From Nitrospiraceae bacterium (GTDB lineage: Bacteria > Nitrospirota > Nitrospiria > Nitrospirales > Nitrospiraceae), in the NCBI GenBank assembly GCA_050246315.1, contig JBFWWG010000001.1, positions 160,001 through 224,000 on the forward strand: DNA of 64,000 nucleotides, written 5' to 3'. Shown piece after piece: positions 10,501-15,647 of the stretch; the stretch's first letter is position 1, and each line of letters begins with the position of its first letter. A program made the position numbers and the translations under genes. A model generated the notes under the pieces. That model had not been told where the DNA came from. It did not search any database and worked only from the letters and a program-made list of their open reading frames with translations.

Positions 10501-10764
10501 GCGAAGCTCCTTCAGCCCGATGCGTCCCTCACGAACAAAGCAACGATACTCGTCGCTGCTGAGATACCCCCGCCCGCCGAACAGCTCGGTTCCCCGTTCC
10601 ACGGCCTGCTCAAACGGCAACGTCTCCAGCCCGTGCAGCGGATTGTGATGGATGAAGGTGCGCATGGGCCAACACTGAGCGATGACCTCCCCAGCCAACT
10701 CAACATAGGACCGCAACTCCATTCGCTGCGCATCGGTATAGCGGTCACGCGTCGCCTCGGTCAT
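7453..10764 (-). CDS. dabA: DabA (DUF2309/UPF0753) inorganic carbon transporter, beta-carbonic-anhydrase-like subunit
   Basis: FIHHNPL, FCIDVRSE, CAHGS, ALDCGACGG, EVRPEWGL, GSGSKVYHN, HEPMRL motifs; coupled to upstream NuoL-like gene. Confidence 0.92.
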   Translation of the reverse strand: MTEATRDRYTDAQRMELRSYVELAGEVIAQCWPMRTFIHHNPLHGLETLPFEQAVERGTELFGGRGYLSSDEYRCFVREGRIGLKELRAVLAPLASENRLCFAGRSLSHLDVLTLSIVDGVTEDGPFAAESTAQEDAATVERVLSWLRAASAQEPASSGRVSSPDLPPEWPLDETLGIWCDRTFGTSLLETINREMVKWCSAFLDEGEVGWSMPGREQTFYRAWKSLAQHDTTLRLIGIPDASAKILALSDRSEDALLEHLATMTIPKASWESYLARHLAAMPGWVGYIKWRAQQGSHPWQEEFPIDLVKYLSVRLFYEREFVEVACRAHLGIAGGEEALRRYVDQYPVAYRLRRAWIGGQVPDSIGKEVRRLLRSKQRLDHQAWETLGRQHRDLEVDVRAQQDRRKAARSLIRLARALSIDPAVIESTPSSDLRLLLTWLDSFPASRQKPVWLQALEATHRRQVLRKLASEATATDLAATDTVAASRPLAQVVFCIDVRSEVYRRHLEHLGGYETLGLAGFFGVPLDYRPFAARHAVSHCPVLLKPKNQVREVPRSYHGALADRHKTATKLSQAARALLHDLKENVVTPYVMVEAIGWFFSLPLFGRTLLPVRYDQVKRWLMRIFMPAVATTLTVEKLARAQAEEMVAAEQQVVIRELLRERFGLSGAALSPTLLETIRKKAVGQTEDTNGDVAKALGFTPAEETVFYEELRERHRVSPRGISSRLDRLTHTGFSIVEQAYFVEAALRLMGLTSNFARAVVFCAHGSTSYNNPYESALDCGACGGNHGLPNARTIAAMANKPAVRNLLQDRGIPIPSDTQFLAAEHDTTTDRVRLIDLEDVPATHRKDLQRLMADLDEAGAQAALERAGSFPQGQPADARGARQLARRRSDDWAEVRPEWGLSKNSLIVIGRRSATQRVDMRGRAFLHSYDHRQDASGKLLETIMTAPLVVAQWINMEHYFSTVDNEVYGSGSKVYHNVTGRVGVMSGVWSDLRIGLPAQTVMNGPAPYHEPMRLLAIIEAPRERIRGIIYRHPLLEQLFNLGWVSLVALDPRDRQCYRYDRAADWIHEELDEGGQDHDQLDAASHEGNQDRCAGGSVEVCH

Positions 10765-12488
10765 CGTGGCACTCGATCGGAAATCGGCCGCGGGCGGTTG
10801 CGCGGTTCCCTAGGTCCGGAACCGGTACTGACGGCCCTCACTGCATCCTCGACATACAGACCGTTGAGAAACGCAACATAGAGGCGGGTATGGAGCGGCT
10901 CGAGCCAGGCCGGAAGTAACAGTCGCATCCCATGGGCTTTCCCATATAAGACGACCCACACGGCGACGACTAGCAGCGCCGATACCCCGACAAACGCATC
11001 GAACAAATGCTGATTCCAAGCTGCGGCTTGGAAGGATGCGGCCACCTGTCCCGGCTCCGGATAGAGGAAATGCGTGAAGGCTTCACCGGCCCAGAGATAG
11101 GTGAGCCCGATGAACGCCAGGGTCGCGATCATCACGGCTGAAACGTCCCAAGATCCGACGGCGTTGAGGCGGTAGAGGCTGAAGATGGCCTGTGCCGAAG
11201 TCACCCAAGCAAAGAACAGGAAGATGACTGTGCCCTGGGATTGGAAGAGCGGAATATTCACCAAGCCATGCGCGATCAGCAGGATGACCAACGGCAACAC
11301 AAGGGTCAGCGCCAATCCGGTGGCCCAAAGCACGAAGGAAAAGGCCGGCGTCTCCCTCACGGCATGATGGCCGGGCAGCTTGAATTCCGTCCGGGCCTTA
11401 TGGATGTTCACTCCCGAGTTGAGAAACAGCGTGGCCTTGAACAGCCCATGGGCACAGAGATGGAACACCGCCAACGCGAACGCGCCCAGACCACACTCCA
11501 TCACCATGTAGCCCATTTGTCCCATGGTCGAGTAGACCAACGTCCGCTTCACGCTGGACTGAGTCAGCATGGTCGCCGCGCCGATCAGGGCCGTGAGCCC
11601 TCCGATCACGAACATCAGATGGAGGGTCGTCGGTGCAAGGCTGTACAGCGGAGCCAACCTGTTGACCAGGAAGCCTCCTGCGTTGACGATCCCCGCGTGA
11701 AGGAGGGCCGATACAGGGGTGGGAGCCTCTATCGTGCCGGGCAACCAGATGTGAAACGGAAACTGCGCCGACTTGGTCATCACGGAAACCAGCAGGAGCA
11801 TCGTGGTCACAGATGGCACATCCAACTGCAGCCCGGCATCGAGCCATGGGACGGATTGCACCGGAGACTGCCTCACGATGGCGAAGATCTCACCAAGGTC
11901 CACCGTCCCGCAAGTCGCATAGAGCACCAGGACCGCCGCTGCGAATGCGACATCGCCGATTCCTTGGATTCGCAATGTTCTTCGACCGGCTTGGACGGCA
12001 GCCGTGCTCGCCGCACGGAACGAGACGAGCGCGACAAGGAACCATGTGACCAGATGCCACCAGAGAAACAACCACAGCAGATTGCCGCTGGTGACCAAGA
12101 GTAAGAGCACGAATGTCAGCAGCCCAAGAAGAGAGAAGAACCGGAGGTACCTCGGATCGCCGGTCATGTATCGGCGCGAATAGACGTGAATCACCAAACT
12201 GACCCATGTGATCAGAACCATCATCACGGCGGCGAGGCGGTCGACCAGCACGGAGTAGCTCATGAAACCCGAGTGGGCGGCTAGGAGGGTCACCTTGATC
12301 GACTCTCCCTGAAGCACCACCACCAGTGTCGCTACCGATGCCAGAGCCGAGGCCCAGAGCGCCGTGATCCCGATCAGACCGCTTCGCTCCCCCAGACCGG
12401 AGCCGAAAAATGGGATCGCCACCCCTGAGAGCAGAGGTGCGAACAGGGCTATTGCCAGAAAGATTGATTCCACTAGAGGCTCCATCAC
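10761..12488 (-). CDS. dabB: DabB NuoL-like membrane subunit of the DAB carbon pump
   Basis: Multi-TM; KSAQFPFHIWLP, EAPTPVSALLHAG, STMGQMG, HGLFKATLFL; ATGA overlap with dabA. Confidence 0.88.
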   Translation of the reverse strand: MMEPLVESIFLAIALFAPLLSGVAIPFFGSGLGERSGLIGITALWASALASVATLVVVLQGESIKVTLLAAHSGFMSYSVLVDRLAAVMMVLITWVSLVIHVYSRRYMTGDPRYLRFFSLLGLLTFVLLLLVTSGNLLWLFLWWHLVTWFLVALVSFRAASTAAVQAGRRTLRIQGIGDVAFAAAVLVLYATCGTVDLGEIFAIVRQSPVQSVPWLDAGLQLDVPSVTTMLLLVSVMTKSAQFPFHIWLPGTIEAPTPVSALLHAGIVNAGGFLVNRLAPLYSLAPTTLHLMFVIGGLTALIGAATMLTQSSVKRTLVYSTMGQMGYMVMECGLGAFALAVFHLCAHGLFKATLFLNSGVNIHKARTEFKLPGHHAVRETPAFSFVLWATGLALTLVLPLVILLIAHGLVNIPLFQSQGTVIFLFFAWVTSAQAIFSLYRLNAVGSWDVSAVMIATLAFIGLTYLWAGEAFTHFLYPEPGQVAASFQAAAWNQHLFDAFVGVSALLVVAVWVVLYGKAHGMRLLLPAWLEPLHTRLYVAFLNGLYVEDAVRAVSTGSGPREPRNRPRPISDRVPR

Positions 12489-12683
12489 CGGCTTCGATCA
12501 GCAAGAAGGAGACCGCGAGAACCAGGCTTCCTAAACATGATCATAAGACACAGAATCTCCATGGTTACTTGTCTGTCTTCTCTCATGCGGCATGGTTCGA
12601 TACTCAGATCGACGTGAGGAAACGATGTGTGCCGGCGCACTCATGTGCGCCAACGCACCGGTTTATCAACGGGCCATGAGCGT

Positions 12684-12716
12684 GCTGCAATCAACCCCTA
12701 GCTGCAATCAACCCTA
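12684..12716. repeat. Tandem direct repeat GCTGCAATCAACCC(C)TA x2 upstream of dabB
   Basis: gctgcaatcaaccccta immediately followed by gctgcaatcaacccta. Confidence 0.6.
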
Positions 12717-13041
12717 ATAGGTAGATCGCGACTCCTCATACCAACGACTCTCGATCGGTCGTTCCGGCGGCCTGACCGGAGGCCGATGGATTCTGCATGA
12801 GGTGGAAGGATACTGTCACGAGGTTTGTTCAGCGTTGAAGAAGGCATGAAAGAGGAAAGGGGCTGCTGTTCTCGACGATGCGGGACCTGATGGCAGATGG
12901 CGCTACCATTAACCCTCTAACCCTTTCCCTGCTAAGCCAGCTCGATCACCCACAATAACCAAGACCTGAAGGGAGGAATCCGTGAAAACGCAACAGGTGT
13001 GGAGTTTTGGCAACAGCCAACTCATTTCGAGCTCATATCAC

Positions 13042-13108
13042 CAAGTCATTGATATTAAATATGTAATTTACTAAACTTCGGCTCGAACTCTATTGGCACA
13101 TAAGTTGT
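13042..13108 (+). promoter_or_regulatory. Putative sigma-54 promoter of lpxC with upstream IHF site
   Basis: TGGCAC-ATAAG-TTGT at 13094-13108 (-24/-12 like); IHF consensus TATCAA-TGAC-TTG on the minus strand at 13042-13054. Confidence 0.5.
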
Positions 13109-13129
13109 ATATGCCTACCAATCGTCATC

Positions 13130-14074
13130 ATGCGCTATCAACAAACCATAGCCTCTCCGATCACCTGCACTGGTATTGGACTCCATTCCGGGCAGCCGGT
13201 CACCATGACCCTGCTCCCCGCTCCTTCCAACACCGGAGTCGTGTTCCTTCGCAAGGCGGGTGGATCGGCGATTCCGTTGGGCGCCACCATCAGTAATTTG
13301 GTGGCAACGGAACTTTGTACGGCTATCAGCAGCGCCGGCACTCAGATCAAGACCATCGAGCATATCCTGGCCGCACTCTGTGGGTTGGGCGTCGATAACG
13401 TCTACATTGAGATCGACGCCGGTGAAGTCCCGGTCATGGATGGGAGCGCCGGCCCATTCGTGCGTCTGATCAAGGCCGCCGGGATCGTGCCCCAGACCCG
13501 TGCCCAACGGTTCCTCAAGATCACGCAACCGATAGAGATCATGGACAGAGGCCGTCGTGTCGTGATCGAACCGTCTCCGACGCCTAAGGTCACCTATACG
13601 ATCGCCTATGACCATCCGCTGATCGGCATCCAGAGTTACGAGTATGAATGTGCCGCCGACTCGTTCGAACGAGAAATCGCTGATGCGCGGACGTTCGGCT
13701 TCCTGAAGGAAGTGGAAGCCCTCTGGTCGCGCGGACTAGGAAAGGGCGGTTCTCTGGATAATACCGTCGTCCTGTCCGACAACGATGTGATGAACCAGAC
13801 CGGCCTCCGATTCCAGGATGAATTTGTTCGGCACAAGGTTCTGGACTTGGTAGGCGATCTCTCGCTCCTGGGCATGCCCTTCATCGGACATGTCAAAGCG
13901 GAGCGTTCCGGTCATGCCCTCCATACGTCATTGGTCAATCAGATTCTGCGTCGCCCGGAATGCTGGGTTCTTCTGTCCTTGGAGGATCAGCCGGTCGCTG
14001 CGGAACGGTCGCTCCTCCAGCCCTGCACGATTTATCACGCCTCTGCCCTGACGGCTCCGGTCGCCTCGGTCTAA
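13130..14074 (+). CDS. lpxC: UDP-3-O-acyl-N-acetylglucosamine deacetylase
   Basis: GIGLHSG, TIEHILAAL, EVPVMDGSA, ARTFGF, GGSLDN, RHKVLDLVGDL, SGHALH. Confidence 0.97.
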   Translation: MRYQQTIASPITCTGIGLHSGQPVTMTLLPAPSNTGVVFLRKAGGSAIPLGATISNLVATELCTAISSAGTQIKTIEHILAALCGLGVDNVYIEIDAGEVPVMDGSAGPFVRLIKAAGIVPQTRAQRFLKITQPIEIMDRGRRVVIEPSPTPKVTYTIAYDHPLIGIQSYEYECAADSFEREIADARTFGFLKEVEALWSRGLGKGGSLDNTVVLSDNDVMNQTGLRFQDEFVRHKVLDLVGDLSLLGMPFIGHVKAERSGHALHTSLVNQILRRPECWVLLSLEDQPVAAERSLLQPCTIYHASALTAPVASV

Positions 14075-14162: not shown

Positions 14163-14202
14163 AAAAAAATGCGCCGGAGGTAAGTGGCCTTACCTCCGGC
14201 GC
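14163..14202 (-). terminator. Rho-independent terminator
   Basis: Perfect 14-bp stem gcgccggaggtaag/cttacctccggcgc with a 4-nt loop, followed by a T7 run on the minus strand. Confidence 0.85.
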
Positions 14203-14221
14203 CTGGAGCGGGGGGAGTGAC

Positions 14222-14260
14222 TTACTTCTTCTTCTTCTTCGCAGCCTTCTTCGTTGCCAA
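14222..14260 (-). CDS. Putative 12-aa lysine-rich microprotein MATKKAAKKKKK
   Basis: TTG start after a strong SD GGGAGGTGA; TAA stop; terminator 20 nt downstream. Confidence 0.6.
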   Translation of the reverse strand: MATKKAAKKKKK

Positions 14261-14683
14261 CGCCCTCACCTCCCTTCACACATGACGTCACGAGTGAATT
14301 GCCGTGGAACGGTCCGCCGCCGCGTCGCGCACGCGAACCGGTGCCGAAGGCCACGCGGCGTGCGGCCTCTTGGTTCGCTGAATTGAACGGAAAATCGATG
14401 ACGATCGTGACGCGCAGGAGCCGAGTTCAGGATGCAGGAATGTCGAAAAGGATGAACTGGAGTGCAGCCTACCACTCAGGTGCGCGGCGAATCCCGCATC
14501 GCTCACGCAAACCCGTTGCGTTGCGGATCGATAATTGGAAACAATCCCGAACGGACAATTAAACGAAACGCGCTTGTCATCAAGCTTGAGAAGGGGAAGG
14601 CGAGAGGCGAAACGTCGTGGTTCGTATTCGATGTTCAATCCTTTGAGTTCTCCAAAATCGGATCTCACTCAAAGCATGTGTGC

Positions 14684-14712
14684 TTTATAGCAACAGCGTT
14701 CACTGAGATCAA
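14684..14712 (-). promoter_or_regulatory. Putative sigma-70 promoter
   Basis: TTGATC-17 nt-TATAAA with extended -10 TGn on the minus strand. Confidence 0.55.
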
Positions 14713-14834
14713 CAAAAATCTCTTGCACTCGGCGGCGACGACGACTCGCTGGCTCTCTTTTCGGTCGTCGCTGGCTCATTTCACCTGAAAGTGTAGCACG
14801 TGTGGATGGTTTATCAATCGAGGCGAGGAACCGA

Positions 14835-15647
14835 ATGAGTCGCGATGCTCAACCAGAATCACTGACACACGCCATGGATACGGCGGTCGCCGCCGCGCGG
14901 AAAGCCGGCGCGCTTCTTCGTGAACAGGCGGAGTCGGGGTTCGGGATCGAACGAAAGACATCAATCGTCAACCTGGTAACCGATGCCGACCGAGCTGCGG
15001 AAGAGTCGATCGTGACACAGCTTCTGGCCGCATACCCGACGCACGGGGTGCTCGCCGAGGAACGGGGACAGGACGGCCGTGTGGAATCACACTGCCGATG
15101 GATTATCGATCCGCTCGACGGCACCACCAACTTCGCCCACGGCTTTCCCTTCTATTCCATCTCCATTGCGCTGGAACAGCAGGGAACCTGCGTCCTGGGC
15201 GTGGTCCTGGACCCGATTCATGACGAACTGTTCACGGGCGAGATGGGACGAGGCGCGCGGCTCAACGGCCGGCCGATACAGGTATCCCGTGTGGCGGTCC
15301 TGGATGACGCGCTGCTGGCCACCGGGTTCGCCTATGACATCCGGGAGGCCGCCGACAACAACCTGGACCACTTCAACCGCTTTGCATTGCGCGCACAGGG
15401 AATTCGCCGCACAGGATCGGCGGCCTTGGATCTCTGCTACGTGGCGGCGGGAAGACTTGATGGCTATTGGGAGGTGACACTGAGCCCTTGGGACTCGGCC
15501 GCCGGATCGGTCATCCTGAGGGAAGCCGGTGGCCGGATCACGCACTTCGATGGCTCCCGCTATTCCATCTACGGTCAGAACCTGGTCGCCAGCAATGGCC
15601 CGCTACATCCATCTCTGTTGCAGGTGTTGGCCGAACGGTCGAAATAG
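14835..15647 (+). CDS. suhB: Inositol monophosphatase family protein
   Basis: LVTDAD, AEE, WIIDPLDGTTNFAHG, RRTGSAALDL, WDSAAG; GAGGA RBS before ATG 14835. Confidence 0.93.
   Translation: MSRDAQPESLTHAMDTAVAAARKAGALLREQAESGFGIERKTSIVNLVTDADRAAEESIVTQLLAAYPTHGVLAEERGQDGRVESHCRWIIDPLDGTTNFAHGFPFYSISIALEQQGTCVLGVVLDPIHDELFTGEMGRGARLNGRPIQVSRVAVLDDALLATGFAYDIREAADNNLDHFNRFALRAQGIRRTGSAALDLCYVAAGRLDGYWEVTLSPWDSAAGSVILREAGGRITHFDGSRYSIYGQNLVASNGPLHPSLLQVLAERSK

Follow-up and report, generated by a model that had tools for sequence, protein, structure and literature searches.

The lysine-rich tails of histone H1 and of bacterial H1-like proteins act by neutralising and compacting polyanions. The bacterial representatives, Hc2/HctB (PF07382), the Burkholderia family NF038053 and Pseudomonas AlgP, are low-complexity chains of Lys, Ala, Thr and Pro of about 150–350 residues. 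According to PMC2848022, the length of Hc2 varies with the number of short lysine-rich repeats, and PMC9239181 links AlgP to polyphosphate granules. The micro-gene family described here has the same type of low-complexity composition, with a peptide of 12 residues at the locus under study, and homology is not demonstrable for such sequences. In contrast to the H1-like systems, this micro-gene has a very strong initiation site of its own and a fixed place beside lpxC.

Three other kinds of described systems are comparable in size or layout. Tiny basic ribosomal proteins (bS22, bL37, Thx, eL41) occur in some bacteria, archaea and eukaryotes. They share with the present peptide a very small size, a very basic character, a presumably high abundance and the ease with which gene callers overlook them. 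However, their sequences are fixed and non-repetitive, whereas the micro-gene family ranges from 12 to 74 residues and includes tandem copies. Attenuator leader peptides and the poly-cysteine short ORFs known from mycobacteria combine a micro-frame rich in one codon with a following hairpin, as here. Unlike in these systems, the present frame is the last element before the terminator of its transcript, has no downstream sense gene and is conserved as a whole peptide. Dual-function small RNAs that double as messages for a small protein, such as SgrS/SgrT, RNAIII/hld and SR1/SR1P, are short self-contained transcripts with a tiny frame and a terminator, and in this they look similar to the present unit. 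The difference is that beyond the genus, and beyond those relatives that lack the upstream gene called X below, conservation of this unit is confined to ribosome-binding site, frame and hairpin.

The 12-codon frame and its signals

In the 64,000-nucleotide stretch of Nitrospiraceae DNA analysed here (the window), the minus strand of the interval between lpxC and a suhB-like gene reads as a promoter, a non-coding leader of about 417 nt, a Shine-Dalgarno sequence, a 12-codon frame and a terminator. The features are as follows, in window coordinates.

13130-14074 (+): lpxC, convergent neighbour (PF03331, E 1.5e-104)
14202-14163 (-): terminator; stem 14202-14171 with 14 pairs, 10 of them G-C, and loop GCCA, then A and seven T (14169-14163)
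14220-14205 (-): C-rich box between stop codon and hairpin, also in relatives
14260-14222 (-): micro-gene; TTG 14260-14258, 11 further codons, TAA 14224-14222; peptide MATKKAAKKKKK
14277-14266 (-): Shine-Dalgarno 12-mer GAAGGGAGGTGA, with a 5-nt spacer to the start codon
14640-14278 (-): remainder of the leader, non-coding, in the position occupied by gene X in relatives
14585-14572 (-): weak terminator-like hairpin within the leader, from a signal scan; 5 pairs, tail GCGTTTCGTT; stem kept within the genus
14674-14641 (-): 5' leader hairpin, stem CTTTGAG/CTCAAAG, from folding prediction and conservation
14692-14684 (-): extended -10 element TGcTATAAA (TG 14692-14691, TATAAA 14689-14684); predicted transcription start about 14677
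14712-14707 (-): -35 element TTGATC, with a 17-nt spacer to the -10
14817-14790 (-): second promoter-like site, TTGATA, 16 nt, TGcTACACT, from the consensus scan; overlaps the start of the suhB-like gene; conserved in the genus
14802-15647 (+): inositol-monophosphatase (suhB-like) gene, divergent neighbour (PF00459, E 4.5e-71)

If transcription begins where the conserved extended -10 promoter places it, the transcript would run for about 515 nt to the terminator.

Among the 95,627 frames of 8–25 codons in the whole 4.39-Mb genome, the MATKKAAKKKKK frame is the sole Lys-rich one (at least six K and at least 45% K). When 40 relatives and the window's own genome were searched by DNA similarity, 23 of the 41 genomes gave matches. 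Outside the genus, the match covers only about 115 nt, from the ribosome-binding site through the frame to the hairpin. All 19 loci found by BLAST have a TTG start; the peptide is identical in 17 of them, and the remaining two differ by whole codons. Across the 17 BLAST-found loci of 12 codons, variable columns number 0/13, 0/13 and 7/13 at the first, second and third codon positions (Fisher p = 1.1e-4), and all substitutions are synonymous, including a TAA to TAG change of the stop codon. A pattern scan with one genome per species found at least 120 stretches; 75 of the 80 titled matches listed come from records named Nitrospira, Nitrospiraceae, Nitrospirales, Nitrospirota or Nitrospirae, one of them N. 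moscoviensis NSP M-1, where the gene lies within NZ_CP011801.1 43910-46955. The 138 loci with a frame encode MATKKAAKKKKK (110 loci), MATKKAAAKKKKK (12 loci) or other close variants, and their lengths differ by whole codons.

The Shine-Dalgarno sequence GAAGGGAGGTGA is a 12-nt complement of the tail of the genome's own 16S rRNA, the gene of which has the 3' end ...GGATCACCTCCTTTCT... In an alignment of 126 distinct relatives anchored at GGTGA, in which the bases 5' of GGTGA did not belong to the search pattern, conservation sets in abruptly seven bases 5' of GGTGA, at the first base of the 12-mer. Four positions of the 12-mer are variable, with A/G exchanges only. All four lie opposite a U of the 16S tail, so that the 12-nt pairing is always preserved. 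The genome contains such a 12-mer at only 23 places, among them the 16S gene itself; at another, it precedes a frame which, by eye, resembles the start of ribosomal protein S2.

The hairpin downstream of the frame is also well supported by comparison. In 75 sequences, 98.9% of its cells are paired and 12 of the 14 pairs show compensatory changes, a covariation reached by none of 500 shuffles; slid registers drop to 41–51% paired. A GCCA tetraloop is found in 92 of 124 distinct relatives, and a stop-to-stem distance of 15–17 nt in 82 of them. The window has both parts of an intrinsic terminator, the G+C-rich hairpin and the U-tract. In contrast, only 29 of the 124 relatives have at least five T within 8 nt after the stem, and thus many of their hairpins are not classic terminators. 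In these relatives the hairpin may serve another purpose, such as protection of the 3' end. In sequence, the 5' arm of this hairpin is similar to the ribosome-binding site (GGAGGTAAGG versus GGAGGTGAGG); like the C-rich box after the stop codon, it could pair with the real site.

Variation at third positions with invariant first and second positions, the 12-nt complement to 16S rRNA and the compensatory changes in the hairpin argue for a coding frame rather than a chance one. Judged from these sequence comparisons, the 12-codon frame is a real, conserved protein-coding gene, unannotated and under selection at the protein level. The earlier note had proposed, from the letters of the window, an unannotated transcription unit with a near-perfect Shine-Dalgarno sequence, a 12-residue frame on the minus strand and a strong terminator. 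The unit is indeed free-standing, with a promoter conserved in relatives, and each of these three elements was found again where proposed. The conservation of Shine-Dalgarno sequence and frame in related genomes, which that note had suggested as a check, is observed for both (126 distinct relatives and 17 loci, respectively).

Gene X, the promoter and the leader

In 126 of the 138 loci the gene order is X, micro-gene, lpxC. At these loci, gene X (about 170 codons) stops 25–45 nt short of the ribosome-binding site; an example is given here.

L005:1638-2195 (-): gene X; equivalents in relatives, highly conserved; absent from the window's genome

Judged by gene order, X and the micro-gene form a two-gene unit in most Nitrospiraceae, in which X comes first. 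Gene X carries a HARE-type winged helix (PF05066, E 3.9e-12), and public records name it hypothetical or winged-helix. In a structural model of mean pLDDT 80, a helix of residues 2–82 is followed by a disordered linker and a winged helix. None of its fold matches was stronger than E 0.001; the best were RNA polymerase delta and, at E 2.5e-3, the DNA-binding domain of the Bacillus nucleoid protein Rok. With its long coiled coil joined through a linker to the winged helix, X is like the nucleoid proteins Rok and H-NS in architecture. Gene X itself stands behind a near-consensus extended -10 promoter.

Neither X nor the HARE-HTH domain was found in the window's genome by protein search (E up to 10) or with the family profile, at an estimated completeness of 100%. 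X is also missing from the locus in the other members of the genus and in a few other lineages. A relaxed tblastn search of the leader in the genus gave no remnant of X (best E 0.5–0.7). Decayed pieces of X are present in one lineage, L160 (E about 1e-19), and there is a faint trace in another, L017 (E 0.004).

The promoter upstream of the leader has the same design as the one upstream of X. A TTGAnn hexamer, a 17-nt spacing and a TGnTAnnnW element precede X in 68 of 75 distinct X-bearing loci, and TTGACA-like hexamers stand before the X genes of relatives at the place equivalent to the window's -35. Since the design is shared, the micro-gene promoter appears to be the old promoter of the two-gene unit. 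The comparison thus indicates that the window's lineage lost X while keeping its promoter and the micro-gene, the leader now filling the place of the lost gene, a point that the earlier note had missed. That promoter and micro-gene outlived X suggests that the peptide matters independently of X. The predicted promoter agrees with the TTGATC-17-TATAAA proposed earlier, to which the extended TG can be added. The TTGATC, the 17-nt spacer, the extended TG and the -10 hexamer are invariant in six sequences from lineages that lack X. The consensus scan, which did list the terminator, passed over this promoter because its rule demands a -10 element ending in T. A proximal sigma-70 promoter close to the ribosome-binding site on its 5' side was also looked for by eye in the genus, where no convincing hexamers were seen; relatives show a weak A/T-rich signal at this place.

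Within the genus, the leader is conserved in three parts: a nearly invariant block of about 130 nt with the promoter and first hairpin, a poorly conserved middle with indels that are not multiples of three, and a last 150 nt that are invariant. Identity is about 93–100% within the genus over window positions 14590-14722 (-), which hold the promoter and the first 100 nt or so of the leader. In three further lineages without X, the promoter and 5' hairpin keep 75–79% identity. Of the two leader hairpins put forward initially, the one at 14674-14641 is conserved, its stem being kept with one G-U change in six sequences of four genus-level lineages; it may stabilise the transcript. The other, at 14378-14333 (gcgaacc/ggttcgc), is unsupported by conservation, as it sits where the leader varies most. 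A coding leader was considered and rejected, since its 126-codon frame (14288-14668) has no Pfam match and the indels in the genus are not multiples of three. No conserved coding frame was found, in agreement with the initial reading of a leader without a convincing coding sequence. Scans found no tRNA or tmRNA in the unit. There was no family of Rfam 15 in it either, the sole match being at chance level (16 bits against a gathering threshold of 49, E 0.64) and outside the unit.

A single-codon run in a tiny frame, followed by a terminator hairpin, recalls an attenuator, in which stalling at the lysine codons of a lysine-sensing leader peptide would control terminator formation. Such control needs a gene to regulate, but no same-strand gene follows: the next gene, lpxC, is convergent, and the order X, micro-gene, lpxC leaves none at 126 of 138 loci. 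It is this lack of a downstream sense gene that excludes the attenuator reading. The residues other than lysine are conserved as well, and no conserved alternative pairing was seen. The C-rich box can pair with the G-rich Shine-Dalgarno site according to pairing computation, but covariation between the two is marginal (11 of 300 permutations as low). This pairing was set aside as too weak to claim, given -11.07 kcal/mol with the own box versus -10.90 +/- 0.09 with swapped partners. Altogether, lysine sensing by this frame is regarded as highly improbable.

Distribution of the family

Of 401 Nitrospirota genomes, 163 matched a start-region pattern made up of GGTGA, a start codon and the four codons that follow. 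The window's family accounts for 75 of these genomes, of which 73 matched; the reversed control gave 7 matches. Fifty loci were read. Six are the starts of unrelated long proteins, and the other 44 hold Lys/Ala/Thr/Pro-rich frames of 12–74 residues behind the same strong ribosome-binding site. Members of 48–74 residues are built of AKKA/PAKK-type repeats, and some loci are tandem pairs. Outside the window's family, lpxC is convergent and immediately downstream in 18 of 24 true loci, with lpxC identity down to 38%. The shared convergent position indicates that the frames of 12–74 residues are orthologues of very different length. Synteny in relatives, another check suggested earlier, is thus borne out for the lpxC side. 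These observations identify the MATKKAAKKKKK gene, by sequence and position, as the shortest form of a low-complexity Lys/Ala/Thr/Pro family found throughout Nitrospirota. The gene upstream depends on the lineage: it is X in the window's class and elsewhere a protein (about 181 residues) that weakly matches ArsR/MarR-type winged helices. At three loci (L173, L174 and L144), the upstream gene is instead a nucleotidyltransferase-HEPN pair, toxin-antitoxin-like and not winged-helix. Some rows come from genomes marked unpublished, G009 (L014), G475 (L212) and G528 (L217), while G457 and G485 enter the tally only; no claim depends solely on them.

Ten members of 20–74 residues have no exact copy among the roughly 15 billion predicted proteins of a large collection, and searches of the main texts of the literature gave no account of a micro-gene of this kind. 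The N. moscoviensis transcriptome paper (PMC6606698), searched by term, returned none either, and a methods passage there states that small RNAs were removed. A 12-codon gene cannot be detected by gene callers. In one Nitrospiraceae genus, a separate locus upstream of an M90 peptidase gene holds a further Lys-rich micro-gene, which starts with ATG and has 21 codons (L192:1519-1581, +).

One of the pattern matches listed came from a record with the title Candidatus Rokuibacteriota. In the phylum of that record, 112 of 151 genomes match (control, 3 matches). The 34 loci read there contain 45 frames of 8–27 codons, most commonly of length 12, with MAKKKAAKKKKK and sequences close to it. Tandem pairs spaced by about 90–110 nt are frequent, each frame having a strong site and a hairpin, and no lpxC lies within 1.5 kb at the loci read. 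The phylum of a record titled Woesearchaeota gave matches in 29 of 101 genomes; six of the 19 frames read are Lys-rich (13–40 residues), and the rest are ordinary proteins starting with MAKKK. From the frames in the Rokuibacteriota-titled phylum, the family is also present in at least one phylum besides Nitrospirota. The MAKKK... frames of 12–13 codons in that phylum, often in tandem, are those at L195 (the same as L026) and L197-L226, and L026 adjoins an AbiEi-like gene and a RecG-like gene.

This distribution bears on the idea that the peptide is a ribosome-bound micro-protein, a very small and very basic subunit filling a pocket of rRNA. The peptide is tiny and extremely basic, near-universal in its family (73 of 75), and present in near-identical forms of 12–13 residues in a second phylum. 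Its initiation site is of the same class as the one before the ribosomal-protein-like gene. The suhB-like neighbour points the same way, suhB having a role in rRNA transcription. However, same-locus orthologues that grow from 12 to 74 residues by repeat expansion, and tandem duplicates, are atypical of a subunit fitted to a fixed rRNA pocket, and the gene lies outside any ribosomal operon. A ribosomal subunit is therefore considered unlikely.

RNA-library contigs and possible functions

Sixteen RNA-labelled runs from several studies contain part of the stretch. Four were examined, all as assembled contigs, from which strand, ends and level are not readable; the depths obtained in two of them are listed here.

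Run X1 (study P1): 14223-14260, depth 1404; lpxC end, 14.7; leader, 31.9
Run X5 (study P2): 14211-14278, depth 254; 14249-14303, depth 397; lpxC, 54; leader, 25

Contigs over 14211-14303 thus have depths of 254–1404 versus 15–54 in neighbouring contigs, in two studies. The suhB-like gene is without cover in run X5, which argues against carry-over of DNA. In run X8, the depth is flat across the region. The deepest contigs cover sequence shared with other Nitrospira, possibly present in the same samples. Contig ends fall at 14278, 14303 and 14749, and adapter-bearing ends at 14208-14222; like the stretches that lack cover, these positions are not readable as transcript ends. The contig ending at 14749 runs upstream of the predicted promoter. 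Taken together, the contigs hint weakly at abundance of RNA from the 3' part of the unit, and so at the high expression that the earlier note proposed.

Another contig spans the end of lpxC and the hairpin, as might be expected if the unit acted at the RNA level. It would then be a dual-function or antisense RNA facing lpxC, read-through or 3'-end pairing tuning lipid A synthesis, and translation of the frame serving to stabilise or gate the RNA. The convergent lpxC in 18 of 24 loci outside the family, at lpxC identities down to 38%, fits this scheme. So do the scarcity of T-tracts after the stem (29 of 124 relatives), the GCCA loop (92 of 124) and the 15–17 nt between stop and stem (82 of 124). 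The substitution pattern is nevertheless of the protein type, the same micro-frames occur in a second phylum without lpxC within 1.5 kb, no Rfam family matches and the terminator is canonical in the window. The dual-function small RNA suggested in the earlier note gains no support, in view of the missing Rfam match and of the conservation restricted, beyond the genus and the X-less relatives, to Shine-Dalgarno sequence, frame and hairpin. Action as an RNA on lpxC is thus held to be improbable.

The most likely function, to which we give about an even chance, is that of an abundant, genetically encoded polycation neutralising or compacting polyanions (DNA, RNA or polyphosphate). Removal of the first methionine would leave an 11-residue peptide with seven lysines. 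Produced in large amounts, this peptide would neutralise and compact polyanions, the nucleoid DNA first and possibly RNA or polyphosphate. We infer this role from the H1-like composition, the variation in repeat number and the association with the DNA-binding-like X. The 12-residue peptide is too short for profile searches, and the H1-like scores therefore come from longer family members. A member of 68 residues scored 33.2 bits against HC2 (PF07382), below the gathering cut-off of 40, and 26.5 bits against the Burkholderia H1-like family NF038053, below the cut-off of 80; a member of 26 residues reached 13.9 bits against HC2. The likeness to a histone H1 tail put forward earlier is hence upheld for the AKKA/PAKK-type composition of the wider family, but not by scores above the HC2 and NF038053 cut-offs. 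On this sequence evidence, it is a compositional resemblance and not membership. Against the polycation reading counts the possibility that a 12-residue peptide may be short-lived, and a role in the nucleoid leaves the fixed convergent place beside lpxC unexplained. As for small polycations, the window's genome has a weak match to a spermidine-synthase domain (37.9 bits, within a 581-codon frame, L227) and no match to an AdoMet-decarboxylase domain. The usual spermidine route may be missing there.

More tentatively, and with considerable doubt, oligolysine micro-genes some 12 codons long, each behind a maximal ribosome-binding site, could form a widespread, overlooked "polyamine-like" class of genetically encoded cell components. 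It would extend over Nitrospirota, the Rokuibacteriota-titled phylum and perhaps DPANN-type archaea, with a possible coupling of the polycation or its transcript to lipid A synthesis through lpxC in Nitrospirota. Nitrite-oxidising Nitrospira are central to the nitrogen cycle and to wastewater treatment. Should the peptide reach the amounts that its expression signals point to, these bacteria would carry an abundant polycation that is missing from annotations, proteome searches and metabolic models. The natural series of 12–74 residues at one orthologous locus makes the minimal working length of a histone-tail-like protein directly testable. Two leads to function are available, the conserved pairing with lpxC and the pairing with a protein of Rok/H-NS-like architecture.

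Two minor observations concern the flanks of the locus. On the suhB side, an RNA-library contig extends to 14825, near the second minus-strand promoter-like site (14790-14817). On the other side, about 640 nt (12489-13129) without a long frame separate a NuoL-like gene (10761-12488, -) from lpxC, and the G+C content falls to 44–45% near 12900-13200. The 12489-13129 interval may be the promoter and leader region of lpxC.
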